A DNA stretch of 64,000 bases, from contig NC_087245.1 in the NCBI RefSeq assembly GCF_037042905.1, positions 6,140,001 through 6,204,000 of the forward strand, given 5' to 3'. The DNA is from Lytechinus pictus. Lineage: Eukaryota. The stretch's first letter is position 1. Every line of letters begins with the position of its first letter. The notes under the pieces are model-generated. The model was not told the origin of the DNA and searched no databases. It saw only the letters and a program-made list of their open reading frames with translations. Shown piece by piece: positions 23,366 through 59,800 of the stretch. A program made the position numbers and the translations under genes.

Positions 23366-24679
23366 GCAGAGCCATTCATTTATAAACTCGATTTAGAAGA
23401 CTTCGTTGTGTCAAAGTAATGATTATTGCTGGTGGCTGAGATCCAATATCGATACTATACTCAATAACCATATACATGATATACGGATGTGCACAACTAG
23501 ACACTATCGATGATCGATGGCGTAACCTGGCATCCTCATCATGGGGCAGGCAAAATGTAGTAATGGTTAATAGATATATGGATACGGGTATAAATGGATT
23601 GTGGATGATTATGTCTGAATTAATTGAGTAAGATATTGATGATGTCAATCTCTTTCCATTCAGCTGATCCTCTCTATCAATTTAAGGAAGAAGTTCTGTG
23701 TTTTTAAACATTGAAATATTAAACTAAATTTATTTCTATAATATTCGGGGACGATCCGGGGGTTTCGAAAACACTTTGCAATGGGTCATGCTTTTTAGTA
23801 ATCATAGAAATAATTTGTCATAAGAAAGTGAATTGTACATTTGTGGGGAATTTAGGGGGGGGGTATTCATTTGGTCTGCAAGCAGCTGGTCTTCTTCTAT
23901 GATAGTCATATACCACGTGGGCTACACCTATTTGATCTAATTTCCGTTTGGTTTCACTAAACCTCATCTAATAACCACCAAGTCTAATTGCCGTTTTGTC
24001 TAATGCCCCGATGATTTTATTTCTATTTCGTCTGCCTTTGCATTTCGTCTAGGGAAAGTTGCACAAAAACAGTTTATCTAATCATAAAGACGAAGTGGCG
24101 TTTAGACCAATGGGATTTGAGACGAAATTGGCATACCCTAACTTGACATGCTGGATATTGGACAAGATGACATATGGACTATTAAAAATATTATAATTTG
24201 ACATTGATCACGTGGGATGAGACCAAACGGAAAGTAGACCAAGTGTTAGTATACTAGAACAAGTGGCAATTTACCAATGTGTAAATGAGAGTTTGGATGT
24301 GTGTGAGGGTGACAAACTAAAGGATATTGATATGGTATGTCATTTAATGAAAAAGGGAAAAGCAATTAAATTTATGAGAATAATCTTTTTCTTTCGTTTA
24401 CAAGTGGAAACAATGGAGTTGGTCTACAATGCCAAAGTTTATCACGGGATTATCAAAAATTGATAGCACATAAACCCAATAATGAATAAATACGGCCAGA
24501 AACGCAGACGAATATTGGAAATATAACACTGGCAGATATTTATATTCCTAAATGGTCATTCTCAAAACTATAGCATCCTTAATTTTGCAAAGTAATGTAA
24601 TTCCATAAAAATGAAGCTAGACAAAAATGTCTTGCCCATTGAGTACTTAAATAGTTAGCAGCAGTTGAATAGATAGATA

Positions 24680-35332: not shown

Positions 35333-35370
<38 letters not shown>

Positions 35371-35670
35371 CTCTGGGGAACCTTGATTTAAGCTACGCCT
35401 ACCATTGTTCTCTTCATCCATTTCTTTCACACAATATTTAAATATAAAAGAGTTGCCAAAGCTGTAGTACATGTATAACTTCACACATTTGTATACTTTC
35501 TCCCATACGTGTACTGTATCAAAGCAATAGCTTTGATCCAGCTGAGGCATGGCGGCTTGTCATTGTTCAAAACCCACCTTCACCCGACAAAGGAAATTAT
35601 AATTGGTATGGTGTCGAAAATCTGTCTATCTGACGGTCAATTGGATCGGGGTCGCCCTAGCCACTAACCC

Positions 35671-35742
35671 GTCTCTGTGGTCTAGTGGTTAAGGCACCGG
35701 CGTTCAAAGCTGGGGGCCCGGGTTCGATTCCCGGCAGAGACA
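35671..35742 (+). tRNA. tRNA-like gene with anticodon TCA (opal-suppressor-like, Glu/Asp-type body); repeat-borne, function unknown
   Basis: Acceptor GTCTCTG/CAGAGAC, D stem GTCT/AGGC, anticodon stem CCGGC/GCTGG with loop GTTCAAA, T arm CCGGG-TTCGATT-CCCGG, discriminator A, then TTTTTT. Confidence 0.6.
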
Positions 35743-36082
35743 TTTTTTCGGCATCACCAATTTTTCCAAAAAGGGTAGATAGCTCTGGGGAACCTTGATT
35801 TAAGCTACGCCTACCATTGTTCTCTTCATCCATTTCTTTCACACAATATTTAAATATAAAAGAGTTGCCAAAGCTGTAGTACATGTATAACTTCACACAT
35901 TTGTATACTTTCTCCCATACGTGTACTGTATCAAAGCAATAGCTTTGATCCAGCTGAGGCATGGCGGCTTGTCATTGTTCAAAACCCACCTTCACCCGAC
36001 AAAGGAAATTATAATTGGTATGGTGTCGAAAATCTGTCTATCTGACGGTCAATTGGATCGGGGTCGCCCTAGCCACTAACCC

Positions 36083-36154
36083 GTCTCTGTGGTCTAGTGG
36101 TTAAGGCACCGGCGTTCAAAGCTGGGGGCCCGGGTTCGATTCCCGGCAGATACA
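36083..36154 (+). tRNA. Second copy of the TCA-anticodon tRNA-like gene, with an acceptor-stem mismatch
   Basis: Identical to 35671-35742 except G>T at 36151. Confidence 0.5.
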
Positions 36155-36254
36155 TTTTTTCGGCATCACCAATTTTTCCAAAAAGGGTAGATAGCTCTGG
36201 GGAACCTTGATTTAAGCTACGCCTACCATTGTTCTCTTCATCCATTTCTTTCAC

Positions 36255-36327
<73 letters not shown>

Positions 36328-36763: not shown

Positions 36764-37201
36764 ATGGCGGACGAGCCTACAATGTCAGCTAGATCAGCGT
36801 TCTTCCAGTCTCTGGTGAACGGTGAGACTGAAAACCTACCCGATCAAGAATCGAACACCGTGAGGATCTTCCTGAGTTCTACTTTTACAGGTACTGCAAT
36901 ATAAATCAAAAGACTTGACATATCTATGTCTTATATCATATTTCTTTAAAAAGAATAACACTTTTAGTGTCTTAACACCTCACCAAATGTTATATTGAGT
37001 CAGAGTAATTAAGGTCAGATGTTTTTTGTGTGTAAATCATGGACCTACTAGTAGGTAAAATTTACAGTGAACCAATTTCCGGGTATTCAAAGTCCAAGTT
37101 GTGCAATAACCCCTCTATACCTTCATTGTGCTCCCATGTACAATGACACATTCCTTTGAATTCCTTTGATAATACAATAACCCACTCCCTTCTCTCTCTC
37201 T

Positions 37202-37242
<41 letters not shown>

Positions 37243-38436
37243 TGTGTGTGTGTGTGGGTGTGTGCGTGCGTGTTTGTAAGCATTCCCCTCTTGGTGCTAT
37301 ATATGATTACTCTCTTTTTTTAATAACTCCAATTCAATAGGCCTGATTGTAGCTCAGTTTTCGGTCTCATTTCTTTTCAGGCTTTTACTATAATTCCGAT
37401 CATCATTTCCGAATAATTATTCATTTCAAATATTATGTTAAACATGGATAAAGTCTGGGTCAAAATTCAAGTAAAGGTCAAGTAAAAGAGATTATTATTT
37501 TACTGGTATATCGTCATACACATGTCGCTGAAAGAACTCTAAAGCTTGAAAGATCACTCGTGATAGACCCAACAGGTACACTATCCCATGCATGTCTTTA
37601 TTGATAGACCTATAATTAAAAGCTTTTGTGACAACAGGCAAAGAGTACTTAGGGGCTCTATATAGACTCACACAACTCATCGATTGCGGAAATAGATATA
37701 AAGCTATTTAAAAAAAACCCTGGTTCCATGACATTTGCTCCGGCAACAATTGTTCCGATGTGAAATCTCCACGTTAAGCATGTTAAGCCAAACATAAAAC
37801 CTAACCTCCGAAAATAAATAAACCCTAATCCTAAATCTTTACTTAATTCTGAACTAAAAAGTATATTACACTCCTAACTCTTACCCTATTCCCTTTAAGA
37901 TATCAAGACCGGAGCAAATGGTATCTCTATAATCAAGAGGAAAATCCTCTCCCTGAACCACAGCTAAAAATTTACTTGATTTAGAACCGTTACACATTTT
38001 CTGTATAGTATTCACTGTAAGTTTTTACATCATCATTATTGCACTAAAATTACAGGAATGTACCAGAGTAGAGAAAGATGTTTTTAAATGAAGAGATGTT
38101 GCAATCAGCATGCAAAACTGGAGAAGATAGTTAGACAAGCAAGAAAAAAGGAGGTGTCACTACTAAATAAAGGTTATTTGGGTCCCCAGAAATTCGACAA
38201 GCAATTAAAACAAATGAAAAAGGAGGGTTCACCACAAAATGTAAGTAAAAAATGGTTTCACTAAAGAAATATAGGTCTTTCTGGTTACATTTCTCCATTT
38301 TGCAACGCTTACCAGAACTCCAGAGGGTGCTGCCTATGAAAAATGTCACGTAGCTTGCCAGGGCCATGTTCATCGATAGAAAGATAAATAGACAGACATA
38401 TTTGTATATATACAGATGGAAAGATAGATAGTTAGT

Positions 38437-38489
<53 letters not shown>

Positions 38490-41400
38490 GGATGGATGGA
38501 TGGATGGATGGATCAATTTTAACAGAATAAGGTAGATATAAGAGGAAAAACTACAACATTGAAATATTTTTCATCGACATAAAATCTTTCTCGGAATGCG
38601 TTATATTCCGGTAACGCATTCCATTTTAAGTACTGCCGAGACTTCATAAGATAGGATGTTATTACCGTTTGTCTTGCAGATATGAAAGAAGAAAGAAACA
38701 AATTGATGCAGGAAGTATTTCCAGAGCTTCGACGGTATTGTCAACAGAGGCAGCTTGAGTTTGAAGTGGTTGATATGAGATGGGGTGTACGAGATAGTGC
38801 CACAGCAGATCACCTGACATCGTTCCTATGCCTTAATGAAATTGACAGGTGTAAACGTATGTCTCAGGGACCTTACTTCGTGGTAAGATTGGTTATTGGC
38901 TCATGTGCTAGGCTAACCCAGGACTATGGACAAACAGATCTATTGCAGTTTTTAATTTCACACAATGATACAATCACTTGAGAAAATTTCAAGGTTTTAA
39001 TACAACTGATTTTCGAACATAATTCATAGAAGTCAATGAAATATTCAATACTATATATCAAATCACGCAAAATAAGGCAAATATTATGTTCTTGGTCTAA
39101 GTTAATCAATTCAGCTTTAAAAAGCGCGGAATTACTTTGTCTTTGGTAATCAATTATTCACTTTGATAAACTTAACTCATCATACATCCACTATGCAACG
39201 AAGGTGGTATAGGACCTATGATAACCGATTACATTGACAAAACAAGGAGGCAAAGCGCTACCGCTTCAAATCCCCTTTCTCCATTTCTCTCTTCTCGAAG
39301 GTTTACCTTGATATAACCATAACCATTTCCTTAAAATTGAGCATATTCATGAAAGTTCTGGAGAAATATCGTTAATTCTCAAAAACTTGTCGAATTTGCA
39401 CAGGGTTTTCTTGGAAACAAGTATGGCTACCGACCATTGAAATCAACCATTCAATCACGGATCTTTAAGAAGCTCATGACAATCATATCACAAAACGATC
39501 GCATAACCCAAGACGACATCAATCTTCTGAAGATGTGGTATGCAGAGGATGCAAACGCCATTCCTCCTGTATACGCACTTCGACCTATCACAGCACTTCT
39601 TCCACATTTCCACAACAAGAGTGAACCAGACAAAGAGGGGCAGGCAAGGAGAACCTGGTGGGAAATGTATACCAAGATGAGGAATGTCTTTGACGAATTT
39701 GCCAGATCGTCAGCAGCGAGGGAAGTTTACAGCGAACAGGAAATCCATTCCTTCGTCATGTCAGGTAATTTCAGGTTCTAAAAAATACACGTATTGATGT
39801 TGGGGTTTTGAAATGTGGTATATGTACTTTGAAACAATTCACATACCTTTAGTTACCATGTCCTACTTGATATGTCTATGAAGACCTCATGATCCATCTC
39901 CTAAGCATACCTTTATAGACCAGTTTAGAATGTCATGAACAAGTTTTCTCAAGATATTACGTAAACAAGTATGACATAGCAGGATGCAGAAATTACATAG
40001 ACCAGGTGACTAAAGTAGCACATAAACGAACATCATTTAAGGGGGTATTTGTTGCATTTTTACTTTGAAAATTAAAATCTATATTTTATAGTTCTAAAAA
40101 GAAATATAAAATAGAAATACTCCAAATACTCGTTTTGCCCATTTGATAGTGGGACCGGCAGTCACTAGCTGTGTAGCGCCATATCGATAGGCTGAAAATT
40201 CTATGGTTTGAAGAGATAAATAACAATGAGACAAATAAAACACTGACAATTTTATAAAAATCGGACAAGGAATAACAAAGTGTGACAATATAAAACTTTG
40301 TATTATTTTGGTGAAGCAGTTCTATGTATGTCTAAAAAAAATTAAATGAGCAAATCGATGATGTCATATCCCACTTGCTATTTTTTATTTTATTATATGA
40401 AAAGATGTTTATTCAATTTATTTCCTCCAATGCATATTCATTGCTGTAACTTACTTTAATATAAGGGAGACATATCATATACACATGTATGAATATATCA
40501 AATGATTATGATTTCATAAGTTAAACAGCAGTCACTATTTAATGCATTGCTTTCCAGTGGATCTAATAAAACAAAATTTAAAAGAATAACCAAAAATTCA
40601 ATTTGATGTTTATCTCATTGATTATGAAACCATCATTCAATATGAGTACAAATTACCTTCTTCTGAAGCATAAAAAATTATTCTATTCTGGTCTACTCCT
40701 TTCGTGTTAATGCCCGTAATCCCTCTTTGAATTAAAATGTCTACTTCATTTTTCCATTTGTGATTATGTTCAGTTACGGAAGAGGAAATAAGACATGCCC
40801 TGAAAGACAACACAAACATTCAAGATACATGTTTGTTCTTTATACGAGATTTTCAGAATCTTGTTCCTTCTAGAGAAAATAGAGGTTTAGTTGCAGACTA
40901 TGCTGACGTGGAAATGATAAAGTGAGTATCGCTCATCTACATTTTGTATTAAGTCATTCATTCTTCTAAAGTACCAATGTGTACAACATATTCTGGTTTA
41001 GAGGGGGAGTCCAAGGACAAATTTAAATCAACGGAATAATTCTAAACAACATGAATAAGTGATTACTTTTTCCATGTGTATTTGAATACTTGCTTAAATC
41101 TGCTAGAGTTTGAATATAAGTTTCTCCTTTATTTGGGATGGCTTTCTGGTCTAAAACTTCAATCCTTTCTCGAGAACGTAGGGAAAGTTTTGTCCTGGAT
41201 AAAATTCATTCAATTTTTTTTTTTCGTCTTCAAGGGATGGAGGTGATGTCCAATTCAACAGGTTTCCTCAAGATAAACTCTCCACATTGAAGGCAAAATA
41301 CATTCCAAGTGTAGTCCCATCTGATTCAGTCATGAAGTACAATATACCCTGGACCGAGAAGGGTTTAAACCCAACAGATTGTAAGGAGCATATAGAGTAT

Positions 41401-44400
41401 CTGAACGACATGTGCAAAGTCTTTGAAAAGCGGATGAAGGATATGATAGAGAAGAGCCTGCAGGATCGAAAGATGTTTACTAGAGATTTACTCCAGATAA
41501 ACATGTACAAAGAACTTCTACACCATTCATCCTTCTGTAAAATCAAATACAGGTTGGTATAGCCCCGGCCCTTGCTCTTTAGCTGAAAGCATATGTAACT
41601 AATTAAACATAGAAATTCTGAGTGCATATAATAATTCAATCAGAAAGTATTTGGTATTGAATTAAGACTGTGTTCAGAAATGTTGCAACATATTATGTAA
41701 GGGTACATGTTGGTATGGGTAAAAGTAATTGGGTATTTACACAAATTCAACATTTATATATTAATATCTGGGACAGGCCTAGCTTGACCGACCAGACAGG
41801 GTCCGAAAAAAATGAAACATGAATCGGGGCTCGAACTTCAGACCTCTCAACAAGTTTGCAACTTCCACGCGTAGCTAGCTCGTGTCTGGAGAATGACATG
41901 CAAATGATGGGCTGATTTTCATTACCTTTTATATACTGCAGCACATTTCAAGGACGAGAGGATTTGATGGGTTCAATCCAGGCTTGCCTTACAGCTAATC
42001 TTGGAAGGCCATTGGTTATTCATGGTGTGTCCGGATCAGGAAAGACCTCTATCATGGCAATGGTAGCCAAACACAGCAAAGAATTCTTTGGAAGAAATTG
42101 CGTGACAGTTCTACGATTCCTTGGAACGTCAGTACAGACATCTTCAATACACATGACCCTTCAAAGCATATGTAGACAGGTAGCTGACTCATCTGAAATT
42201 AAACGTTTAACAAGCTTTTTTTTCATTTCCGTTACTCATTGAAAGCTACTTAAAGCATTGGAGTCATTCAACCCACGAAGTATTCACATTTGCTTCTATA
42301 ATATTGATAATTATGTCCGAAGTATTTCTTGTATTCTTAAGGGCATGGATTTCATAACCATATAATTATTTTTCATTTACTTCAATCGCACTGAAAACCT
42401 CTCTGAACCACCAGAACAAAGTCTTTTCATAAATAGCATGGGAAAGATCCAGTGTATAACTCACACAATCTTATACAAAGAATAAAATATTCGAATCCAT
42501 CCAGAGCAACTGTAATTAGTGTGATAGTTGATTAATATACCCAGTGGATATTTCATGGATTCTTCTTATTTATTTTATCTAGATCTGCATTGCATATGGA
42601 GTGGAGCAACCTGCAGATGATCACCTGGATGATTTCTCAGAAACAGTTCAGACATTCAACAACTTGATCAGAACAGTTCCATCCAAAGAAAGGTCTCTTC
42701 TATTACTCCTAGATAGCATTGACCAACTGGCTTCCAATAATAATGCTCATATGATGAACTGGTTACCCAAACACCTCCATGAAAACACCCATATTGTTGT
42801 CTCCATGCTTGAAGAAGAGCACCAATGCCTTAAAAATATCAAAGTGGCTTTGAAGGATAACAGATGCTACATTAAAATGGACCCTTTGGAAAAAGATAAT
42901 GGTCTTGCAATCATGAAGAGTTTGCTAAAGAGCAGAGACAGAACACTGACGCGTGAGCAAGTCGACATTGTGACAGATGCCTTCATAAAATGTCCTCAGC
43001 CCTTGTTCTTGAAACTGTTGTTTGAAGAATTTGTGAGCTGGCCATCTTTCAAGAAGATAGAAGAGATAAATCTTCCTGGTAATATTTCTGAAGCTATCTT
43101 GTCCTTGTTCAAAGATCTAGAAGATCGACATGGAAGACTCTTTGTAGCCCATGCTCTTGGTTATCTGACAGCAGGAAAGAGTGGTCTGACAGAAGCAGAG
43201 ATAGAAGACGTCCTTTCGTGTGATGACAAAGTCCTCAATGATGTCTATCAGTACTGGGATCCTCCTGATGAAGACATTGTTCGAATTCCTCCATCTCTGT
43301 GGAAGAGGTTACGTCTGGACATCGACGAATTCATTACTGAACGTCAAGCAGGTGGAAAGACTGTGCTTGCTTGGTATCACCGACAGTTCATTGAAACTGC
43401 TCAGAAAATGTATCTTGGCGACCCTTATACCAATGTAGTTAGGCACCAGCTACTTGCTGACATGTTTAGGGGAGAGTATAGTGATGGTGCTATCAAACCA
43501 ATTACACTACATGGTCGTAAGAAGGAATTCAGAAAGGCTGATCGCCAAGCAGCAGCTCAACCACTAATGTTCGGAGACGATGTTTTCAATTTGCGCAAGT
43601 TGCAAGAACTTCCATATCACCTCATGCAATGTACACCTGTAGATTGCTTTCCAAATGGTTTGATTAAGTACGTGATGTACAACTATGAATGGATTTTAGC
43701 CAAGTTGAGAGCTTTAAGTTTCATAGAGCTTGTAGATGACTTCATGCAGTATGATGACGAGAGCGCTCTTCTGATAGATGCACTTTACCTCTCGGGGAGC
43801 AATATCAAGGAGGACCCGTTTGCATTGGCAGGCCAGTTAATTGGTCGATTGACTGACTTCGTGGATGTATATCCAAATATTGGAAGACTTCTTCAAGAAG
43901 CCAAGTCCTGGATGCAAACAACTACTCTGTCTCTCATAATTCCCAGAGGTGCATGTCTTATCCCTCCTGGAGGGCAGTTAAAAGCATCTCTTGCAGGTCA
44001 TCCAAATAGAGTCGAGGCCATTCGATATGCATGTTCTGTAGGCATGCTTGTAACCATCTGTAACGATAATGATGGACAACCAATGGCAAATGTATGGGAT
44101 GAACCAAAGATAGAACTCATTCACACCCTCGAGATAAAAGCTAAGCAAAAAGCTTCAGGTAAATTGACACTCGTTCTGAGCCCTGATGAGAAACATGTTG
44201 TCTTTGGTTGTCAAGTGCTTGGTGTGTTCGCACTTTCTAGTGGGTCACTGGTTTGCAAGTTGGAAACTGGAAAGAACCATGCTATCAGCTCATGCACGAT
44301 ACAAGAAGATGGGTGTCATGCTGTAGCTGGTGCAGAAAAGGGCACAAATGTGTACTTGTGGGATTTGAGAAATGGGCAACTCCTGATGAGCTTGAATCAT

Positions 44401-47400
44401 CCTGCAGCTGTTCATTTTACCTTTTTCGAAGGCAATTCTGAGATTCTGTCCGTCTGTCAAGATGGCCGTATCAGACGATGGTCAATCGATACCAAGGACT
44501 GCATTCACTGTTTTGAGGTCCATAGGGCTGGTGATATCAGGGAAGCAACTCGCTCAGCAATGAATAAGACCATGATCACGGGAAGTTACGATGGAACTAT
44601 CAAGATATCAAGCTATCTCCATGAAGAACACAATTCAAGCATAACACTCAAAGCACACAAGAAAGCCATATCATGCCTCTTGATTTTGTCAGAAAACCGA
44701 CTTGCTTCTGGTTCTGGAGACTCTGTTGTTTACATCTGGGATATGGTGACAGGAATGGCGATATTGTCCTTCAAAGGTTAGTCGTAATTTTGTAGTCAAT
44801 GGTCTCTCAGAAAGCTGTAAACCTTTAGATTTCTGCGTTTTGAGATAAATCTTCTGTTACAGTAGGTACATTGAAATAAATATTATGTTAAAGTAGGTGC
44901 ATCTACTTTATAACATGCAAAATGTTATATGGAAATTAAATTATTATTAAGGAGTACGTTTAGAGGTTTTCCTCAAGACTGGAGATATATCCTCTTTATT
45001 TTATACATGTAGGTCATGTTGGGATGATCACATCTCTATGGTTTGGTGAAGCTGACCAGAGTGTTGCTGACTCACGAGAGATTCTGGTAACTGGATCAAA
45101 GGATGATTGCCTGAATGTGTGGAGTCTGAACACTGACCACACTGAGAATTCTCTCATCACCTCCTTAGAAGGACATTCATCATGGATTACAGATGTAACA
45201 GGATCAAGCAGTCAGAAAATATACTCTGCATCTAATGATAAAAGTGCTAAAGTATGGGACTACAAACGAAATACGGTGAGCATGGCCTGGAAGTTGATTA
45301 GCTTTACACTAAAAAAAGAAAATATCACATCTAATCTCAGGCATTGTCGATCATTTCTCTTTCACATCACAGGTGATAAAAAGGGAGAGGCACAAAGAGC
45401 ATGCATTTGGACTTGTCTTTGGACCTGACAAATCAACAGTCATTACGAGTGGACAAGAAGGTACTGTCAAGTTCTCAAGATTCTCCGACTGCCAGGTGAT
45501 CCGCCAAGAATCTGGGTTTGCATACACTCTCTTGATAAGCAGTGATGGCAAGAAGCTCATAGGTGGAATGGTCGATGAAGGCGTGGTCCGTGTATGGGAT
45601 GTTGTTCAATCAGAGGACAGGAATAGTTCATTCGATCTTGAGGGTCATGACAAGGATGTTCTGTGTATTATCCAAGGTCATGATGACGAGATCATCACAG
45701 GGTCACTGGATACAACGGTTAAACTGTGGTCACTGGAATCAAAGTCATGTCTGAAAACACTCGAAGGTAAGTATGTGTGTCTAAAAATGTAAGGGAAATC
45801 CAACCTTAGTTACAAATAATCTGCATGAAAGAAGATATGTGAAAGCATATCAGTGAAAGGATTTTTTAAAGGTATGCCTATTTGAAAACTGAGGGCACAA
45901 AGGCTTTGTAAGTCTAAATTTGGGTGCAGATTGTGTCATGTGGTTGGGACAACTCCCCCATTTGTCGTGTCCTAATTCATCAGCAATATGTGGTTTTCTC
46001 CTAAGCACCTTTCCACCGGGGCGGTTGTACAACATAAACAGATTCTTGTTATATTCCCTTATAAAAGAAAAAATATTAATACCATAACTTTGAAAAATAT
46101 GACCATTTGAAATTTTTATTGAAACGAATTTTGAGTTTTGTTAAAATGGACGATTTTAAAAATTAATCAGAAGTCAATTTGAGGCATCTATTTTACTGAC
46201 ATAAACCTGCTTCCCTGGATATAAATCGAACAGAAGATTAATGTTGTAGTTTAATGAGTTTAATTAAGGATTTAATTACTTTTATTTCTTGACAATTTCC
46301 AAAATTTCCTAAATATGATTTATGTTTCATTTCTTAATTAAGGGCACAAAGGTTCTGTTGAAATTGTGAAAGTGACGAAGCAAGAAGCAGACACTCTGAT
46401 CCTATCAGCAGATAGTAAGGGTATGCTGAATATCTGGGAATATAAGACAGGAGAATGTCTGCTATCAGCTAAAGAGCACAGGACATCAATACGATGTCTT
46501 TCTGTATCCGATGATGGTAAGAAGTGTTTCTATTTGTTCATACTCTGGTATTATATATTTTTCCTTTCATGTCATTAGAGCAGTCTCTAACATTGCTCTG
46601 TTTGTTTAGGGGTTTGGGGGGTGTTACTAAATTTACTTCTGAGGTACATTTAATACTTGTTTGTATTGTGACAAAACATTATTAGCAGTACCCTAGAAAG
46701 AAAAAAATGACACAACAAATATTATGCAAATAATACATATTGAGAGCATTATACATATTTACATGTGCAAGGTACCTTTAGAATATTTCTAAGTAGTCCA
46801 GATTGGAATTTGATGTGTAAAGGCTCTCTTTCCCAAAGCTAACATTCAGTAGAGGTATCCGGACTCCAAGTCCTTAAAGGACAAGTCCACCCCAACTACA
46901 AGTTGATTTGAATAAAAAGAAAAAATCCAACAAGCATAACACTGAGCATTTCATCAAAATTGGATGTAAAATAAGAAAGTAATAACATTTGAAGTTTTGT
47001 TTAATTTCACAAAACAGTTGTACATCCTGGGACCTGTTGCATAAAAGTTACTACTATAGTAACTTTGCGATCCAATGGTAACTAACATGGTAACATGCCC
47101 CAACAGCCAATCAGAATCAAGGATTTTATGAAAGTTACCACTAGACGGCGAAGTTATCATAATGGTATTTATTATGCAATGGGGCTTTGGACGGTATGCA
47201 AATGAGGGGACTTATGACATCACTAACTTTTTTTTTCTTTATATTTCATAATAACTTTATGAAATATGGAACATTATAATTTTATACTCATTGTTCTAAC
47301 ATAGCTGAGGAAATTAGTACTGCTTGAAATTTAACAAGTATTTGTAATTTTCTAATGCTTGAGAAAAGTGATGTTTATTATATGTTTAAAAATAAAGTGG

Positions 47401-48836
47401 TTTGGATCCCTATTATCTGACAAATCATCCTTATCTCAAACCATGAATAGTCAATAGACCTGGGAGTGTTTCACAAAGATTTAAGTATGACTTAGAGTCG
47501 CACTTAAATGCATAATTGCGTGCTTCAAAGGCATTACCGCATTGGTCAGATCATGCGAAGAGGACACACACTACTGCGTATTGATCAAGAAGATTGCGCG
47601 TTGCATTTCAGATATGTGTCGGCATTTAAGTGCGATTTAAGTCATACTTAAATATTTGTGAAACAAAGGTCATTGGTACCAGTCATAGGCAAATTTTCAT
47701 GTCAGCTGAAATATATGACTGGTCACATGGTTAAAAATCAACCAATTATCAGGATATTTATCAACATTTTATGATATATGCTACCTCTAAAGAAACAAAC
47801 TACATGTTACAATATAATTTCCCTTTAATAAAACTTTAAATATATCTGCATGTACGATTGTCTTCCTAGCTAAGCCCCATATTCAATTTCACAAGAGTGG
47901 AGAAAAGTCAGAGCTTTATAGCTTTATAATGAGTTGTATATGTATTTTAAAGAGTATACTTGGATATCATCTCCGCAGGTAAATATGCGGTCACAGGAGG
48001 AAATGACAAGAAGGCCCTACTCTGGTCATTGGATTCGTCTGACGGTTCTTTTGGTAAGGTGCTACAACGTTTGGCAGTACATACATCAGAGGTAACGTGT
48101 GCTATCTTCATGCACGATGGTAGAAGGATTATCACAGCTTCACATTCAGGAAGTAAACAGCTCTATATGTGGAATATATCAGGAGATGAAACAGACCAAC
48201 AGTAAGTAATCTGTCTTTCTTTCTTAAACTACAAACTTCATCCTTTATTCTTCTTCCTTCGAGTGTCCAACCCTACATTCACTTTTTTCATTTAATCAAA
48301 TTCCCCAAACAAATATATATCAATGTCAAATATGGGCGTTTCTTAATCTAGAGGGGAAATGAAAAAAAAGATATTCATGGTGTCGTGTGTACAGAGTGGG
48401 AGTTGGCCACTTTAAATTGGTGCCTAGTGATTAGCTATAATTATAGAGCTCAACTTCAGTGACATTAAAGTCAATTACAATGCCAAGTGGTCTCAACTTT
48501 CAGTTAACAATGACAGATCTTTGTTTTACTCTCGATCTTGTTAGTTTCATCTATGGACATTCCCACGCAATCCTAGATATGCATATATCAGCAAACGATT
48601 GTTACTTGGTTACAGCATCCCGTGACTGCACCGTCAAGGCTTGGCATCTTCCATCCCGACAGTTGATGGCGTCCTTTGACTGCAAATCAGCGATAAAGCA
48701 CATAGATGTGGTTTACATCAATGAAGATCACTACCGTATAGCAGGAGAAAACAAAACTGGAACTATTCTCCTACTGGATCTGTTTCTCCCAAAAGCAGAC
48801 AGGTCTGAAGCCTACTATCAATCACAAGTAATGTAA
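36764..48836 (+). CDS. NACHT and WD40-repeat protein, NWD1/NWD2-like (DUF4062-like N-terminus, NACHT/STAND ATPase, WD40 repeats), 12 exons, 1644 aa
   Basis: Exons 36764-36890, 38680-38882, 39404-39764, 40774-40921, 41235-41552, 41942-42179, 42583-44776, 45013-45275, 45373-45766, 46343-46516, 47979-48201 and 48545-48836. All are GT-AG and phase compatible (4935 nt). Motifs VRIFLSSTFTDM..ERN, VVDMRWGV, LGNKYGYRP, Walker A GVSGSGKT, Walker B LLLLDSIDQL, WYHRQF, RKLQELPYHL and GH...WD repeats. Confidence 0.93.
37203..37275. repeat. (TA)n/(TG)n microsatellite
   Basis: Direct inspection. Confidence 0.85.
38420..38513. repeat. (GATA)n/(GGAT)n microsatellite
   Basis: Direct inspection. Confidence 0.9.
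46878..47290. mobile_element. Kolobok-like MITE relic with a nested small MITE (about 47028-47185); related inverted relic at about 57290-57826
   Basis: TTAA-AGGACAAGTCCACCCCAAC start. The nested element has TTGCATAAAAG ... TTATGCAA ends. Confidence 0.45.
47459..47665. mobile_element. MITE
   Basis: TGTTTCACAAAGATTTAAGTATGACTTA ... TAAGTCATACTTAAATATTTGTGAAACA inverted ends. Confidence 0.7.
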
Positions 48837-48945
48837 TGAAATATGTTCATAGACCACCTTATATTAATATTTGTATACATATATAATATCTAAAAGCATA
48901 TTATGCTTTTAGATTTCTGTGATACATTACAACAAATTTAATTAA

Positions 48946-49527
48946 AGGGATGGTCCGGGCTGAAAGTATTTATAGCTTAATAAATAGAGTAGAATTCACT
49001 GAGCAAAATGCTGAAAATTTCATCGAAATTGGATAACAAATAACAAAGTTATTGAATTTTAAAGTTTAACAATATTTTGTGAAAACAGTCGTCATGAATA
49101 TTCAGTAGGTGGACTGATGATGTCACATCTCCACTTGTTCTTTTGTATTTTATTATATGAAATTAGGTATATTCAAATTTTTTCCTCCAAGAACTAGAAA
49201 AATTGGATTGACAACTGATTTAGTGCATTAGACATTTATTGCTGCAACTTATTTCATTATAAGGGAGACATATTATTCACACAAGTATGAAATAATGAAA
49301 AAATTATGATTTTATGTAATAACATAAGAAAACGGAAAGTGGAGATGTGACGTCATCAGCCCACCTAATGAATATTCATGACGACTGTTTTCACAAAATA
49401 TTGCTAAACTTTAAACTTCAATAACTTTATTATTTGTTAGCCGATTTTGATGAAATTTTCGGCATTTTGCTCAGTGAATTCTACTCTATGTATTAAGATA
49501 AAAATATTTTCAGCCCGGACCACCCCT
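48946..49527. mobile_element. Kolobok-like MITE with TTAA TSD
   Basis: TTAA|AGGGATGGTCCGGGCTGAAA ... TTTCAGCCCGGACCACCCCT|TTAA with long inverted arms. Confidence 0.85.
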
Positions 49528-52031
49528 TTAATGATTGATGGAACAAGAACATCTTGATCATCTATTCATATACTGTATTCCTGTAAATTAAATGCAAACA
49601 ATAAAGGGTTACTGGATCCAAATTTAGAAAACATGTTATCAACAACAATCGCAAGAAGTCTGTGTCAAAAATAATCAAATGATGTGGCTTTAGTAGAGGA
49701 AGTGAACAGAGAAGTTGTGAAACAGGACTCTTATGCATGTAAACACTCCAGGATTGAAAAGAGAGATGGTTGATAAAATGGATAGTGAACTGATGACAAT
49801 CTTGTTCATGGGTCGTCCTAAGATAAAATGGTGCATGATAATTTCATCTTTCTCTTCAGTCAGAAGTCAGAGTATGAATGTTAGAAGCTTTAATGCACCA
49901 CTTTTTAAAAAAATCCAGAATCAATGTGTTCAAACATGAAGCTTAATTAAAACTTACACCCGCTCTGATACCAAAATGGTGGCAAAATTTGAATGAAAAA
50001 AAGTGCCATTACATCCAGGGTTTTCTACATATTACATAACTGAATAGGATTCAAAGTGGAGGTCTTATGAAACCAGCTCTTTTCAGCTGAAAAGCAGCTT
50101 TAATTACATATTTATGAAAAGCAATTACATCTTAGCTTTTTTTATCTATGATATAAGGATATGAGTACAATATACATAGGTAGTTAGAAACAAAAAGATT
50201 TTTTTTTTCAAAAACCTTGCATATGACAAAAAGTATTAGCCTGAATAAAATTCAGTTGTAGCAAGGTAATATTTAGTCATACAAATATTATTGTTCGTTG
50301 TAAACATGAATTATTAATATACTTGTAGTATACCTTTCTTGATGTCACTCATATATGGGTCAAGTCTAGAAAATAAAAGAAATACAACAGATATCAATTT
50401 CACTTCTGAATTTAATTCATTTCACAAAATATTAGAATAGATTTGGTTTACAATATCACAATGAAGGTAACACATCATTTGATCTTCTGACTCTTGCTCC
50501 TCCTCTAATATCTCTGGAGATATTAGGTGAGGGTTGTTATAGGGTTTGCAGTTTAGAATTATGTGAGGATTGGGATTAAGGTTAAGGTCAAGTAGGTTAA
50601 TGTTTGGCTTAATGTGTGAATTATCAATGGGAGGTATTGTCATAAAAGCAAATGTCACAGAACCCACAATGAAACCATGAAAGTCATTAATCATCTAGTC
50701 AATTTATTATTCTCAATTGATATTCAATATGATGATGTGATAACACTAGGATTAAATTGATGATTTATAAATAAAAGAATGGAATGTAATATGACATCAA
50801 ACACCTACACCAATCATTGTTTTTTATTCAGTCAAAACCACAAATGAATATTTTGAATACAAATACAATTGTTCACACAATATCATAGTATATTGAAATA
50901 AGAAAATACATGATAAATAACTACAAATATCAATTTGTCTGTTATCTATGTCTACATATATACAGATTATAATCCTGATTGATTAATTCTAAGCATCAAT
51001 AAAAATGTGTTGTGACAAAGATGATGATGAATTTGTATAGCAAAGCCACTGTATATTTCTACTGCACTTTGCTTACACTAAACACTTAAAATGATGATGT
51101 ACTTAATTGCTTCCCAACAAAGATGTGTCTTCAATAATGATTTGAATAATAATTAAGTATTCTGGACTCAATTTTGTTTAGATGATTTGTTATATCTGCA
51201 TGATATATTCATACCTGAGTAATTTGTTTCTTTGTTTTGTTTTGTTCATGCATGTTATATTACTATAATTATACCAGTGGGAAAAAAAATCTTTGTAATC
51301 ATGTTTATGAAGACAAAATAAAATATCTTGTACATGTAAAATAATTAGCTTTAGAACTGATTATGTACAAAGTGTCATGTTTGAGTGTGACCCTTTCCTT
51401 TGCATCTTTGTAATTTTTCAACATTAAAACACAACTGCATTACAGAAATTATCTTTTACTGCATTTGTGGCTGCTTTGTACTGCACCCCTGTCCTTTTCA
51501 TTTTCATAATTACATGTACATGTATTATTATAATACATGAGATTTACAAGAATTTACAATTTCAAGAAGATTTTAGCCTTTGACTCATTGTAAAGCCAAA
51601 TTTGTAGTTGTTTGTTCATTCTGACATATGTATAAAAATATACATATTCCCTGTTAAATTATATATTTTCCAAGATACAAGGCAAAAATTTACAAGAAAA
51701 GACTTAATCTTATCTAATTTTGACAGAGCTTGATATTATCACTACTATTGCACAAGAAATATTTTCCATTAAGTTCATGAAAGGAAATGTTCAAAATATA
51801 TAAGAGAATAAAAAATCTATGAAATATTTAAGTAGAAAACTACATGTACTTGAAAGCAAGGTAGGTAAATGATTGCAAGGTTTTTAAAGATCACATTATA
51901 TCACAATAAAATCCATTATAGAATGCAAGTGATGAAATCCAACTTGTGATTATAGAGATATTTATGAGTGCACTTGTTCAATTTCTATAAATCTACAATA
52001 CATTCATACATACTGTGAATAAACATTAGTA

Positions 52032-52362
52032 TGTACAATGACATGCACTGTACATATGACTCATCATTACCAGGAAGACAACTGATACTGCCTACATTGT
52101 GCTTTCCCTTTTTCATAATGCCCTTTAACGATAAAAGGAAACAAGTGTCACGTCAATCAAACTCTATTTACAAATATATAGCACTTAATACTTTGTTTTC
52201 AGAGCTCTTTACACTGCAATTATTATATACAGTGATACATTTTTGTACAATGAAATGCTCTGTATGTATGACTCATCATTACCAGAAAGACAACTGAAAC
52301 TGCGTACATTGTATTTGTCTTGTTTCATAATGCCCTTTAAGTACAAAAGGAAACAAGTGACA
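52032..52362. repeat. Diverged direct repeat of about 120 bp (offset 212)
   Basis: TGTACAATGA...ATGACTCATCATTACCAG...AAAAGGAAACAAGTG at 52032 and 52244. Confidence 0.7.
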
Positions 52363-53944
52363 AGCTTAAGTCAATTAAACTATGTACAAGTATCCATATT
52401 TTTGATATTCTACTTAATGTGCTTTTCTTCTGGGCAAAAATTAATCCACTGATACTCTTCCAGAGAAGAGATATGCTGGTCAAGATGAGGTATTTAAATG
52501 ATATCAGTATAGACAAAAGACACATTCTGAACTTTTAGAAAAAATGTCACTTGTCACTTGCTATGTTTTTGTTGTTATAGGGGTGCATGTTACATGTAAG
52601 TAGGAAATATCACAGAGATAACATAGGTCCTTGAACATGATATCAGATACAAGTCCCAAGTACAGGAGAATAACGAAACTATTCGTTGTACAAGAGATGT
52701 GGAAAACTCAAGGGTGGCACTCCACCTACATATTCATACCAATCTTCTATTTTGAGAAGATAGAATGATTTGATATGTTCATATTCAAAAGTAATTCTTC
52801 ACTGGATTATTTAATTGCTAAGGTAGTATTCCAAAAACAATACATTTCTAAATATGTCAATGTAGACGTCTGTTATTTTACAACATTTCTCAAAATCAAA
52901 GAAATTGACATTTTCTTTTTGATTTGTTTATTTACAAATGTACAAACACATGTAAATGTATCTTGATATTATTGTGTTTTTAAATTTTTAATAATGATAA
53001 TAATAATAATGATATTATTATTATTCTTTATGTGTGTCTGGCATCATTTATACATGACCATGTATGGATTAAAAATAAATAAAACATGCATCAATGACAT
53101 TACAACATATTATACATGTATCTCTGGTTCATTTCTAAGAATACACTGTTCATTTATATTACACACACAACCACTATACATGTAATCATACTTCCTGCAG
53201 TACAAGACTGAACTGGTACGAATGTTCACCCTGTATAAATGGAAACTTTATCATAAAATCATTTGAATACATTATGCAATCATAGAATGTGACAAAGAGA
53301 AAGAGAAACATTTTCATAACAAATGCACAAAACTTTAGATGTGAAAGACAGTGAAATTGATAATAAAAATGAAAATTGCAGTACTAAGCACATCGAAACA
53401 TGAAGCATCGTTTTGGCATTCTTTCAAACACATGCATTAAGATATTCAAGAAGTTTTGGACGGATCTCAAGCATATTTCACTCACAATATAATGGAACAC
53501 TACTAGAATATTATTGCAGCAATCTCTTCATATATATCCCTATCTCGTACAAGTATGATTTACATTCAAGAAGATTCCTCATACGGTTCAAATGAAATGA
53601 TTTAAATGCATAGTTCATTGCACACATCCAATGAATCATGCATATTGGTACAAAATACAACCCCAAAAGTACAATTCTTTGATCCCTTTCTTTTCAATGA
53701 TAAAGGAATATGGCATAAGGCCCACCACAAATGACTTACCTTTCTTTGCTAAATTGTTTGACCTGCAGCAAAATGAATGAAGAAATGACGAAGACGAATT
53801 CATATTCATAAATACCATTGAATTCTCGCACAAAACCTTCATGGAGAAGGCTACATGACATATCTTCATTTCTTCTCATTTCAGCTCCTGTTGGATTTCT
53901 TTGATGCTAGGCTGTTAGACCCTTTCTCTTGCTGCGTCCAACAG

Positions 53945-56815
53945 AATGACTGGATTAAATGTTTTTAGTAGAGCATGATTATGGCTGACCTACTCTTCTC
54001 CCCCTCTGAATTACTTTTAGACTTCGAAGTTATATTGTCAGGACAATAGCATTGACGTAGTGACTGGATCAAATGTTCTCAATAGAGCATACAGATAACC
54101 GACCTAGTCTTCTTCTCTTCCGAGTAACTGCTAAACTTTGCTTAACCCTAATTCTCCGGGGGGGGGGGGGGCCATTATGGCCCCCCCTCTACAATTTTTG
54201 TGATATATCTGCTGCGCAAAATTTTTTGACCTCGCCGCTCACTGACTTTTTACTTTCAAGTCTTGCGCAAATTTTGAGACCAAATTTGTGACGCCCGGGT
54301 ACGCGGTTACGACATTACGCAACATTATGTAAGTGCATGTCAGACCCAAAATTGCTCATAAATGTGATTTCATGTACAAATCCAATGCAAATTGTGTATT
54401 TGGCCAAAACTCATAAATGTATCATTATTTCTACTTTTAATGATCAAACTTAATTAATTTTGCCTAGTTTATGATTAGAATTAAGTCTGGAACGATTTCC
54501 ATTGAAAAAACAATAAAAAACAAAAATTTAAAAAACAAAGAAATACATAAGAAATTTAAAAAACAATAAAATACATAAGAAATCGGTCTTGGTACCAGAA
54601 TTTTTTTCATTCACAATTGTTAGGAATGCTATAAAGAATATTTTCACAAAAAAATAGCATTCTAGGAGCTTTATTTAGTGAATCAGAGCAAAAAGTATGA
54701 TTTCATGAATAAATTAGCATAATTAATTCATATAAAATAAAAATATATGAATTCAGTGAAATTTACCAATGCAACTGCGTAGATTACGTCATTCTCTACC
54801 ATCATGCAAATTTTCGTTGTGATCGCGCTATCCACGGCTGAGATCTTAAGGGGGGGCCATAATGGCCCCCCCCCCCCCCCCCCCGGGAATGACAAGAATC
54901 AGAATACCCCAGGAGATTGAGGGTTAAGCTGTACTGTCAGACTCAGAGCACTGATGTAATAACTGGATCAAATGTTCTCAATAGAGCATACAGATAGCCA
55001 ACCTAGTCTTCTTCTCTTCCGAGTAACTGCTAGACTATGCTTAAGCTGTACTTTTAGACTCAGAGCACTGATGTAATAACTGGATCAAATGTTCTCAATA
55101 GAGCATTCAGATAGCTGATCTAGTCTTCTTCTCTTCCAAGTAACTGCTAAACTTTGCTTAAGCTGTACTGTCAGACTCAGAGCATTGATGTAATAACTGG
55201 ATCAAATGTTCTCAGTAGAGCATACAGATAGCCGATCTAGTCTTCTTCTCTTCCGAGTAACTGCTAAACTTCGCTTAAGCTGTACTGTCAAGACTCAGAG
55301 CACTGATTTAATAATTCGATCAAATGTTCTCAGTAGAGCATACAGATAGCTGATCTAGTCTTCTTCTCTTCCAAGTAACTGCTAAACTTTGCTTAAGCTG
55401 TACTGTCAGACTCAGAGCACTGATGTAATAACTGGATCAAATGTTCTCAGTAGAGCATACAGATAGCCGATCTAGTCTTCTTCTCTTCTGAGTAACTGCT
55501 AAACTTCGCTTAAGCTGTACTGTCAAGACTCAGAGCACTGATTTAATAATTCGATCAAATGTTCTCAGTAGAGCATACAGATAGCTGATCTAGTCTTCTT
55601 CTCTTCCAAGTAACTGCTAAACTTTGCTTAAGCTGTACTGTCAGACTCAGAGCACTGATGTAATAACTGGATCAAATGTTCTCAGTAGAGCATACAGATA
55701 GCCGATCTAGTCTTCTTCTCTTCTGAGTAACTGCTAAACTTCGCTTAAGCTGTACTGTCAAGACTCAGAGCACTGATTTAATAATTCGATCAAATGTTCT
55801 CAGTAGAGCATACAGATAGCCGATCTAGTCTTCTTCTCTTTCGAGTAACTGCTAGAATTCGCTCAAGCTGTACTTTTAGACTCACAGCATTGATATAATA
55901 ACTGGATCAAATGTTCTCAGTAGAGCATACAGATAGCCGATCTAGTCTTCTTCTCTTCCAAGTAACTGCTAAACTTTGCTTAAGCTGTACTGTCAGACTC
56001 AGAGCATTGATGTAATAACTGGATCAAATGTTCTCAGTAGAGCATACAGATAGCCGATCTAGTCTTCTTCTCTTCCGAGTAACTGCTAAACTTCGCTTAA
56101 GCTGTACTGTCAAGACTCAGAGCACTGATTTAATAATTCGATCAAATGTTCTCAGTAGAGCATACAGATAGCCGATCTAGTCTTCTTCTCTTTCGAGTAA
56201 CTGCTAGAATTCGCTCAAGCTGTACTTTTAGACTCACAGCATTGATATAATAACTGGATCAAATGTTCTCAGTAGAGCATACAGATAGCCGATCTAGTCT
56301 TCTTCTCTTCCAAGTAACTGCTAAACTTTGCTTAAGCTGTACTGTCAGACTCAGAGCATTGATGTAATAACTGGATCAAATGTTCTCAGTAGAGCATACA
56401 GATAGCCGATCTAGTCTTCTTCTCTTCCGAGTAACTGCTAAACTTCGCTTAAGCTGTACTGTCAAGACTCAGAGCACTGATTTAATAATTCGATCAAATG
56501 TTCTCAGTAGAGCATACAGATAGCCGATCTAGTCTTCTTCTCTTTCGAGTAACTGCTAGAATTCGCTCAAGCTGTACTTTTAGACTCACAGCATTGATAT
56601 AATAACTGGATCAAATGTTCTCAGTAGAGCATACAGATAGCCGATCTAGTCTTCTTCTCTTCCAAGTAACTGCTAAACTTTGCTTAAGCTGTACTGTCAG
56701 ACTCAGAGCATTGATGTAATAACTGGATCAAATGTTTTCAGTAGAGCATACAAATGGCTGATCTACTCTTCTTCCCTCCTGAGTTACTGCTGGACTTCTT
56801 AGAAGATGCACTATC
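53945..56815 (-). repeat. Tandem array of 117/118-bp units derived from the stop-codon region of the minus-strand NWD gene
   Basis: The T(G/C)GATCAAATG landmark occurs at 54964, 55081, 55198, 55316, 55433, 55551, 55668, 55786, 55903, 56020, 56138, 56255, 56372, 56490, 56607 and 56724, with further copies at 54065 and 53951 (the latter more diverged). Confidence 0.95.
54146..54923. mobile_element. piggyBac-like MITE with TTAA TSD, inserted into one array unit
   Basis: TTAA|CCCTAATTCTCCGGGG ... CCCCAGGAGATTGAGGG|TTAA. The repeat unit continues seamlessly on both sides. Confidence 0.85.
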
Positions 56816-59800
56816 TGATCCACTGTCTTGCTGGTTTGTATGTGATGACTGGTGCTTTCCATTGTTCTGGTCACTTGAGGTTAGTATGTGGTGTGTCTCA
56901 TTGAGCTGGGTATGGTGATCAAAGCTATTAAAAGAGAGAGGGAGTCAAAAAATTATTTTTATAAGAGTAAAAAAGAAAAATATTCAAGATGCTAAGATGA
57001 GTTTAATGAATGAACAAGAACATCATGTTTGATGCTTGAATTTTTAGAGATGAATCAAATCTATGTACCCTCCTGCCATAAAATAGGGTGGTATTTTTTA
57101 TACACCAATGATTACTCAAGATCACGTAAAAATAATTCCTTGACAGTCTTGAAGATTTATTTATCACTTAATATTCACCTACATTTAGTGAGAGTGGACT
57201 TTATTTCCGAAGAATCAAGGTTGGTGCAGGATTTGTGTTTTAAGGGCATGAAGATGGCTTAGATAAATGAGAGGAATTTTCAAGGCAAAATAACTTTCAA
57301 TGGATAAATCAATAGAGATAAATGAAACAAGCATATTGTTGAAAACTTCATCAAATTGTAAATAAGAAAGTTATGACATTTTAAAGTTTTGCTTATTTTT
57401 CACAAAACCGTTATATGCACAATACATTGACATGCAAATGAGAGGGTCGATGATATTTCAATTTTTACAGATTTGACAATAAGGACCAACTTGACTGAAC
57501 CATAAATTGTCTAAACAATGGCAAATCCACATGTGGGGGGGACTTTGTTTCACAGGACAATAAGGAGAAAATTACAAATTTCATATTTCAGATACCTGTA
57601 ATAAAATCCAAAAGAAATAGTGAGTGAATGATTTCATCGGTCCCCTAATTTGCATACAGACCAGGATGTGTATATAACTAGTCTGTGAAATTAAGTGAAA
57701 CTTCAAAATGTCATAACTTTCTTATTTTACATCTGATTTTGATGTTTGATGAAATCAAAGTGTTATGCTTGTTGGATTTTTCTCGTTATTCAAATCAACT
57801 TTTTCTTGGGGTTGTATTGTCTGTCAACTAATGAATAAAACAAACAAACCTGATGTCAGATCTATCTGCTTTCTCTAGTAGCATATCAAGAATGAGAACC
57901 GTTCCAGATTTATTCTCTGCTGCCAATCGATAACGGTCCTCACTGCCATAGACAAGGTCTATATTCTTGATCTGAGATTTGCAATCAAACGATGCCAACA
58001 TCTCCATGGTAGGAAGATGCCAAGCTTTCAAGGTACAATCACGGGATGCAGTCACCAAATACTGGTCATCTGATGATATACACATATCCATGATGGCATG
58101 GTTGTGACCAACCAGCAGTCTAAAAGTGCACAAATCATAAAGAATATTGACTTTCATACAAAATTTCAAACATCAACAATGCTCGTTATTGATTTTTGCA
58201 GATCACTAGATCCATGATGTATTCATATTCTCTACTCTAACAAATGTTTCCTCACAGGAACTGTGCACGGCCGTTACCCTGGTGGGCAAGCTACATTGAC
58301 TTTTACAAACATTTTTACCCTGCACTATGCAAACTCCTTAATGTGCATTAAACATCCAATCATGTCTCTTTCGTATTGTCATGGAAGGCCACCAAAGCAA
58401 TCACTAGATTTTCAATACCACTCTTCTAAGATAAGTAATCAACTGAATTCTAATCAAATTCACTAAGAGAACTTCATCTCCTGTAATAATCTCCATAGCG
58501 CTTTGCAGTCAATCTCAAGGATAAACTTAACCATCTTTGTCTCATACAAATACTATATTCAAATCAAATAAATAAGAGCTCCACTGTCAGGCAATCAACG
58601 CCAATAAATGATTTGAATTAAAGCAATAATTTAAAGGAGGCAGCTTATGCTGTGAATGATAATATCAAATTTATGTTTACTTATCTGGGGGCCATTTCAT
58701 AAAGCTGTTCGTAAGTTAAGAGTGACTTTAAGAACAACTGGTGATCCTTTCTTGAGGTAAATAATGTTTATTGGTGATTATCTAGCATGTAAGAAAGGTT
58801 CATCAGTCATTCTTAAATTCGCTTTTAAAGGGATGGTCTGGGCTGAAAGTATTTATAGCTTAATAAATAGAGTAGAATCCACTGAGCAAAATGGCAAAAA
58901 TTTCATTAAAATCGGATAACAAATAACAAAGTTATTGAATCTTAGAATTTAGCAATATTTTGTAAAAACAGTCGTCATGAATATTCATTAGGTGGACTGA
59001 TGATGTCACATCCCCACTTGTTCTTTTGTATTTTATTATATGAAATTAGGTTTATTCAATTTTTTTCCTCCAAGAACTAGAAAAATTGGATTGACAACTG
59101 ATTTAGTGCATTACATATTTATTGCTGCAACTTATTTCATTATAAGGGAGACATATTATTCACACACGTATGAAATAATGAAAAAAAAAAAATTTATGTA
59201 ATAACATAAGAAAACGGAAAGTGGAGAAGTGACATCATCAGCCCGCCTAATGAATATTCATGATGACTGTTTTCACAAAATATTGCTTAACTTTAAACTT
59301 CAATAACTTTATTATTTGTTATCTGATTTTGATGAAATTTTCGGCATTTTGCTCAGTGAATTCTACTCTATGTATTAAGATACAAATATTTTCAGCCCGG
59401 ACCATCCCTTTAACTAACGAACAGCTTTATCAAACACTCAACTGGATTGAAACATCAATCATATATTTATAACCTGTTATTATTGCTATCCCTTTCTAAA
59501 GAACAGAAGCACTCAATATTATTTATCACAGATATGATGCTTTTGGAGTAGACAACTTTTGGAAGGAATACAAAATAGAGCTTAATTTGAATAAATAACA
59601 GTTGTTTACTTACTGGTCATCATCAGCCAAAAAATCCCAGACATGAAGCTGCTCCACACCAGCATGGGTTCCCCAGACAATCTTAGAACTGTCGTGAGTA
59701 AATGCACAACAGATCACCTCTGACACATGAACTGCCATACGCTTGACCACTTGACCAAAGGAGTTTGGAGACAATGACCAAAGGATCATCTGCTTGTCAT

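Follow-up and report, generated by a model that had tools for sequence, protein, structure and literature searches.

Locus and host gene

We analyzed a window of 64,000 nt of Lytechinus pictus DNA (contig NC_087245.1, positions 6,140,001 to 6,204,000, forward strand, assembly GCF_037042905.1). It contains the 3' part of an NWD1-like (DUF4062/NACHT/WD40) gene on the minus strand and, directly downstream, a tandem array whose units copy the C-terminal end of that gene. The 5' part of the gene is outside the window. A preliminary description had proposed that the end of an NWD gene, consisting of a CaaX motif and a stop codon, was amplified about 17 times downstream. This was confirmed by cutting the minus-strand sequence at each stop motif, which recovered the gene's own end (stop 56740–56738) and 17 further units (u1–u17), and both translations quoted in the preliminary description were exact when the sequence was re-checked. 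We discuss here the structure of this array, its presence in the mRNA, and its probable origin as a minisatellite.

The protein of the host gene (P0001) is 98.1% identical to an NWD1-like protein of L. pictus and 96.7% identical to one of L. variegatus, and its annotated cluster mates from L. variegatus and L. pictus carry the name NACHT domain- and WD repeat-containing protein 1-like. By its domains and its named cluster mates, the host gene is a member of the NWD1/NWD2-like NACHT-WD40 proteins, and the protein is unremarkable among them. The last exon begins at 56924, which corrects the preliminary description. The features at the 3' end of the gene are listed in Table 1.

Table 1. Features of the NWD1-like gene end and the downstream array (positions within the window)
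Feature	Position	Strand	Evidence
3' part of NWD1-like gene (DUF4062/NACHT/WD40), residues 1154–1708 of P0001	56738–64000	-	Exon-by-exon match, 98–100% identity
Penultimate exon, final WD repeats, phase-2 donor at 57850	57850–58119	-	Spanned by X1 contig 3 with 0 differences
Last intron	56925–57849	-	Zero RNA depth in unique part
Last exon, coding part: low-complexity spacer, basic patch, CMLY, stop	56738–56924	-	X1 contig 3 junction; strong acceptor; tail conservation
CaaX-like motif CMLY of the real protein	56741–56752	-	Cys at -4 in 54/120 homologs listed
Proposed cassette acceptor TAG|CAG, unit 1 (recurs in all 16 interior units)	56669–56674	-	Score -6.0; unsupported
Units u1–u15 in 3'UTR	54978–56737	-	Tandem Repeats Finder; unit splitting; sense RNA reads on unit 1
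u16, with insertion at TTAA holding its internal stop	54079–54977	-	Excision minus one TTAA leaves exactly 117 bp
778-bp non-coding element, CCCT...AGGG ends, TTAA target duplication	54146–54923		31-bp subterminal inverted repeat
Degenerate u17 (114 bp, Cys lost) and about 20 nt of leftover unit head	53945–54078	-	Unit comparison; flank alignment

Structure of the array

The head-to-tail arrangement of the units was well above chance: Tandem Repeats Finder gave a 117-bp array of 16.0 copies at 54924–56798, with 91% matches and a score of 3061. Longer periods of 235 and 352 bp fitted the array better than 117 bp. Units u1 to u15 are uninterrupted (56737–54978), u16 is broken by an insertion, and u17 is degenerate, with its last base at 53965. 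The units are 117 bp long in 11 of the 17 cases, 118 bp in five, which alter the reading frame, and 114 bp in u17. In each unit, about 36 nt correspond to the beginning of the 3' untranslated region (3'UTR) and about 81 nt (about 27 codons) to the coding tail; this split is approximate, and the alignment does not fix the duplication breakpoint to the base. The preliminary description had aligned the unit with the gene end codon for codon over 39 codons; this fits the length of the 11 units of 117 bp, but only about 27 codons derive from coding sequence, the rest is 3'UTR, and six units have other lengths.

Only 10 of the 17 unit sequences are distinct (u2=u5=u8; u4=u7; u3=u6=u13), so the units are not independent pieces of evidence. 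The interior types differ from one another by 6–12 bases and are arranged from u1 to u15 as A B C A B C A B C' A' C' A' C A'' D, that is, as 352-bp trimers followed by 235-bp dimers. The copies at the edges, namely the gene tail and u17, are strongly diverged, with 31–34 base differences between u17 and the interior units. Among eight diagnostic states in u17, six fall cleanly to one side (five to the gene, one to the array); of the remaining two, codon 11 has the gene state and codon 13 a third state. A mosaic of variant units with diverged edges is the pattern that unequal exchange produces in tandem arrays.

The higher-order repeats had been overlooked in the preliminary description, as had the 778-bp insertion in u16. 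Excising this element together with one TTAA restores u16 to exactly 117 bp, which makes an exact empty site. The element has CCC/GGG inverted ends with a terminal match of 11/14, and we take it to be a piggyBac-type miniature inverted-repeat transposable element (MITE). It resembles piggyBac-derived MITEs in its TTAA duplication, its CCC...GGG ends, its lack of coding capacity and its exact empty site, whereas the terminal match of only 11/14 is a difference.

Transcription of the array

We mapped RNA data to 56621–58200, a segment containing unit 1 together with the final two exons. Four of 23 listed runs were used: about 6% of each of two stranded raw runs (X21 and X22) and the contig sets X1 and X5, the latter being the only one used of 15 small-share rows from a second species (organism B). 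The depth on unit 1 was 25.6 in one stranded run and 30.9 in the other; the corresponding values for the coding part of the last exon were 2.5 and 5.4. In both runs the unit-1 reads were entirely on the strand of the gene, and the unique part of the intron had a depth of 0. An old high-copy inverted-repeat element within the last intron (about 57315–57830) attracted thousands of foreign reads. Across runs, the RNA depth on unit 1 was 6–14x that of the coding exon, and by the rough measure of X1 contig depth it was 13–14x. The X1 set behaves as RNA, because its intron depth is zero and it contains an exon–exon contig. Reads crossing the stop carried the repeat allele in 17 of 17 cases in X21 (at 56753) and in 9 of 12 in X22; therefore, these reads cross junctions between units, and single molecules hold consecutive units. 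Additionally, four contig sets, presumed to be RNA and, like every run that contains this stretch, not recorded as such in the index, contained 65–72% of the words sampled from 54930–56923, where the coding sequence alone explains 156 of the 711 distinct 31-mers. Given the stranded unit reads, the reads through consecutive units and the zero intron depth, the array is located in the sense 3'UTR of the transcript.

The array is untranslated, its longest stop-free stretch in any frame being 38 codons. Read-through of the real stop to a second CaaX was considered and rejected, as the frame ends after 17 codons at the internal stop of the unit, before the next CaaX. Five C-type units carry ATTAAA (56486, 56134, 55782, 55547 and 55312), and the first AATAAA after the stop of the gene is at 54675, inside the 778-bp insertion. 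As a side observation, this AATAAA in a TTAA-flanked element may terminate the mRNA; a further candidate poly(A) position is 52932.

The composition of the array differed between samples. At 56681, the same state was found in 12 of 29 reads in X21 and in 34 of 37 in X22 (p = 1e-5); compared with the assembly, X22 had 36/36 against 62.5% expected at 56664 and 34/37 against 50% at 56681. The allele shares in X1 (0.58, 0.50 and 0.23) were near those of the assembly (0.63, 0.50 and 0.31). These differences in unit mix point to turnover of the array, although reads may be non-independent and samples may be pools. In organism B, the last exon differs at 16 of 211 letters, two contigs are unit-like, and the unit depth is 2.3–2.6x that of its exon. 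As organism B has unit-like contigs, the duplication is probably older than the split from its species; judging from contig depth there, the large expansion of the array may be recent.

Splicing into the units

The preliminary description had pointed to a conserved TAG|CAG just downstream of the internal stop of the units and proposed that the units could serve as alternative last exons. The motif is indeed present in all 16 interior units, in phase 2, matching the donor at 57850, and a splice product from it would be in frame. However, an identical AG|C occurs at 56789 in the gene itself, where it comes from the Ser-Ser codons AGC-AGT, and any AGC Ser codon gives a phase-2 AG; the phase match thus needs no selection, and the in-frame product is explained by descent from these codons.

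We scored the sites with an acceptor matrix built from 17 acceptors of two NWD genes, a small training set, using leave-one-out scores and 618 decoy AGs. The proposed TAG|C sites scored between -4.9 and -7.4, below all 17 real acceptors (-0.9 to 5.7), from which a wide gap separates them, and at the level of the decoys (median -4.1). The unit-1 site was outscored by 69% of the decoys, and in u1–u3 the proposed sites were beaten by 60–69% of decoys for TAG|C and by 28–56% for CAG|T. The AG-exclusion zone is violated at the unit sites: the previous AG lies 5–10 nt upstream, compared with at least 24 nt in 17/17 real acceptors, and 4–5 AGs fall within the 30 nt upstream. The weak pyrimidine tracts that had been remarked on are borne out by a content of 33–44% pyrimidines upstream of the proposed sites, where a pyrimidine tract proper is absent.

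The canonical junction was recovered directly. A single 1632-nt contig of X1 links 57850 to 56924 with zero differences, and the bin depths in X1 at donor and acceptor (15.6 and 14.2) equal those of this contig alone (15.66 and 14.20), which leaves no room for a second contig at the 57850 donor. In X5, the depth at the donor was explained by two contigs only. The junctions from 57850 into the units that the preliminary description had proposed to look for are therefore not implied by contig depth in either set. At its depth of 19, X1 excludes only isoforms above about 10%, because contigs drop rare forms.

Variation within the units

To assess selection, we tallied the changes in the 18 codons downstream of the AG, entering each a single time. 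Three non-synonymous and four synonymous changes fell on the branch leading to the array; a fourth non-synonymous difference at codon 5 was left out, as it was assigned to the gene branch, the array residue being common to u17 and L. variegatus. Within the array there were five non-synonymous variants, one of them a nonsense change at the Cys, and four synonymous variants, two of which revert to the base of the gene and may not be separate events. Four of these nine variants were CpG transitions. That five of the nine alter the protein, one destroying the Cys, counts for neutrality. The damaged units agree with the preliminary description: the Cys-to-stop change is in u14 (codon at about 55107–55109), and the most distal unit, u17, has no Cys. 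Variant density was alike on both sides of the AG, with 15 variants per 66 columns upstream and 9 per 52 in the proposed cassette (Fisher p = 0.50).

Origin of the array and alternative explanations

Taken together, we consider it likely that the array is a gene-derived, near-neutral and fast-turning 3'UTR minisatellite that arose across the stop codon, was expanded by unequal exchange and most likely lacks a function. Under this scenario, a single tandem duplication of about 117 bp spanning the stop codon would have joined about 81 nt of coding tail and about 36 nt of untranslated sequence; the first copy would have stayed the working end of the protein, with the other copies placed downstream of it in the untranslated tail. 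The interior copies (A, B and C, later trimers and dimers) would then have been multiplied and homogenized through unequal crossing-over and conversion, while the gene tail and u17 would have left the exchange and diverged, and the TTAA-specific element would have entered u16 later. The mRNA is spliced from 57850 to 56924 and its frame ends at 56738, with the array carried untranslated behind that stop, so that the protein would have a single C-terminus. Neutrality was one of the two options offered by the preliminary description, and it is favored by the sense RNA over many units, the higher-order repeats, the insertion, the Cys-to-stop unit and the composition that varies between samples.

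Several observations weigh against this reading. The comparison of synonymous and non-synonymous changes proposed earlier for the 18 codons gave a weak synonymous excess (6/14 to 8/16 against 22–30% expected, p = 0.015–0.17), the single result that speaks for the cassettes of the preliminary description. The three differences from the gene in the last eight codons, which the preliminary description had noted to be all synonymous, are present (p of about 0.01–0.015, for a stretch picked post hoc), but u10, u12 and u14 carry the TCA of the gene; u17 assigns two of the three to the array branch, and the last eight codons of u1–u13 are without amino-acid change. Raw reads were shallow on the exons (0–6x; none on the penultimate exon in X21, 1–6x in X22), a depth at which rare splicing could occur unseen, and the 15 of 111 joint-read records listed, dominated by reads of the intronic element, give no junction count either way. 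In organism B, the best-matching unit contig has 6 differences in 121 on unit 1, fewer than its exon, although it was picked for its match. Selected splicing from 57850 into the units at a low rate in some tissue or stage, or conversion of the gene tail by the units, would account for the synonymous excess beside the CaaX and would yield short-spacer prenylated NWD isoforms; we think this very unlikely.

Among the alternatives to a near-neutral minisatellite, the array could have been co-opted as a 3'UTR regulator in which copy number tunes mRNA stability, localization or polyadenylation, with the ATTAAA of the C-type units as one possible route. Its presence in the mRNA, its occurrence in a second species and the ATTAAA in five units are consistent with this, but we regard it as unlikely: all 100 shuffled sequences folded better than the trimer (z = +2.5), which rejects a structured RNA, no Rfam match was found within the array, the 13–14x depth in X1 suggests that most transcripts pass the ATTAAA sites, and the unit depth in organism B is just 2.3–2.6x. 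The lone Rfam match, snoR9 in a G/C run of the insertion, scored 22 bits where the cut-off is 90 and is not credible. The bank of alternative last exons, in which 57850 would be spliced to TAG|C or CAG|T of a unit to give a short-spacer isoform S-S-Y-x-E-E-K-K-T-R-S-A-I-C-M-L-Y, is very unlikely. Its in-frame product, the CaaX retained in 15 of 16 interior units, the weak synonymous excess and the precedent of CDC42, for which 10.1101/366369 describes alternative CaaX-bearing last exons, speak in its favor, whereas the AG and its phase are inherited from the AGC-AGT codons at 56789, the sites score like decoys and have 4–5 AGs but no pyrimidine tract upstream, and the donor depth in both contig sets leaves no second junction in X1 and fits only the two contigs in X5. 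In addition, the copies are near-identical, so that having a bank of them would bring hardly any diversity.

An exchange at the DNA level, in which unequal crossover or conversion with the array as donor swaps the spacer before the CaaX, could draw on 81 nt of homology in register. It might also explain why residue 1684 of P0001 is Asp, as in the A and C units and u17, where three other echinoid sequences have Asn. However, the tails of P0001, P0006, P0007 and organism B are gene-type at the diagnostic codons, and a parallel point change at residue 1684 is equally likely, since the gene encodes this Asp by GAT and the units by GAC; we find such exchange highly improbable. That the true array has only two or three units and the remainder is an assembly artefact is hardly credible: the 352-bp blocks are almost identical, as an artefact would have them, but the RNA depth is 6–14x that of the exon in three runs and the X1 allele shares are near those of the assembly.

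C-terminus of the host protein

We examined the C-termini of 120 listed homologs out of 524 NWD1/NWD2-like proteins found. Cys at position -4 occurred in 54 of the 120, compared with 1–4 of 120 at neighboring offsets, and in 9 of the 13 best matches. The 54 proteins end mostly in Leu or Ser, and Tyr is the final residue in two, both echinoid. Within the listed set, a C-terminal Cxxx is found in coral, mollusc, echinoderm, hemichordate, shark, salmon and caecilian proteins. The basic patch and a C-x-x-Y terminus are conserved in Strongylocentrotus purpuratus (CMIY) and Diadema (CLVY). For CMLY, prenylation is predicted by two of four methods in a yeast table (PMC9231725, file 7), and in PMC10942308, Tyr at the X position is among the residues enriched in a yeast GGTase-I screen, though non-consensus; the part of PMC9141697 seen does not address Tyr at this position. 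In view of the conserved Cys and basic patch, the predictions and the screen residues, the CaaX label appears reasonable for the CMLY end of the host protein, whose lipid modification is predicted only. A full-text literature search, which had most subscription papers outside its coverage, found no paper on NWD1 prenylation, the match listed being a mouse neuroanatomy paper.

Many of the other listed NWD1/NWD2-like homologs have long Asp/Glu tracts at the C-terminus. An inverted, tail-to-tail paralog lies on the plus strand of the window at 36764–48836 (P0014, 58% identical); it ends just after the last WD exon and has no CaaX tail and no exon resembling the tail at 56738–56924. In an S. purpuratus paralog (P0002/P0003), the basic patch is kept and is followed by SKAAYLLF and a hydrophobic stretch, the Cys and stop being apparently lost; the lipid anchor may there have been exchanged for a transmembrane anchor. 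The P0002 and P0003 gene models diverge past the SKAAYLLF region.

Other elements in the window

Two copies of a 590-bp palindromic element, 94% identical, lie behind the paralog (48942–49531) and in an intron of the host gene (58825–59413), and a direct duplication of about 150 bp (81%) lies between the two converging NWD genes at 52032–52393. Other repeats include a local duplication of 879 bp (1–878 and 1832–2709, 99.7%) and a 412-bp unit present 2.2 times (99%) between AT runs at 35364–36270. By eye, we also recognized non-LTR retrotransposon-like frames at 8900–12600 on the plus strand (endonuclease- and reverse-transcriptase-like, broken by stops and frameshifts) and, on the minus strand, a multi-exon gene for a membrane protein, with CUB-, SRCR-, WSC- and sushi-like exons (15833–23700), and an intronless frame for a seven-transmembrane receptor of about 400 amino acids (27192–28442).

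Comparison with known systems and significance

Minisatellites, or variable number tandem repeats (VNTRs), with higher-order repeats are known in 3'UTRs, an example being the 40-bp VNTR in the 3'UTR of SLC6A3. The array resembles these in its head-to-tail units, variant mosaics, diverged edges and sample-dependent composition, but its unit is longer (117 bp) and copies the last codons and stop of its own host gene, which is why it resembles coding sequence. Alternative CaaX-bearing last exons are known from KRAS4A/4B, and CDC42 would be, by analogy, the closest functional counterpart of the rejected last-exon model, in that the segment would carry both the lipid-anchor motif and the stop. In contrast, each alternative end of CDC42 and KRAS is a complete exon that has its own acceptor and a distinct motif, whereas the copies in the array share the CMLY motif and have no acceptor, and no junction was seen at them.

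In the literature search, most subscription papers again being outside its coverage, we found no description of this array and nothing on Lytechinus NACHT-WD40 genes; for minisatellites and for CaaX/last exons, the titles and abstract openings revealed no comparable case. An exact search of metagenome contigs for a 33-nt pattern gave 0 matches. The array is of modest importance; it clearly documents the birth of a minisatellite from the stop-codon region of a gene, and its history can be read from its edge units, its higher-order repeats, its insertion and a second species. It also calls for caution, as such arrays mimic exon cassettes; splicing into the units, if true, would be a new route to C-terminal isoforms. 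Finally, a Cxxx end is common among NWD1/NWD2-like proteins, in animals as far apart as corals, sharks and amphibians, and predicts lipid anchoring, a side result that may outweigh the array itself in value.

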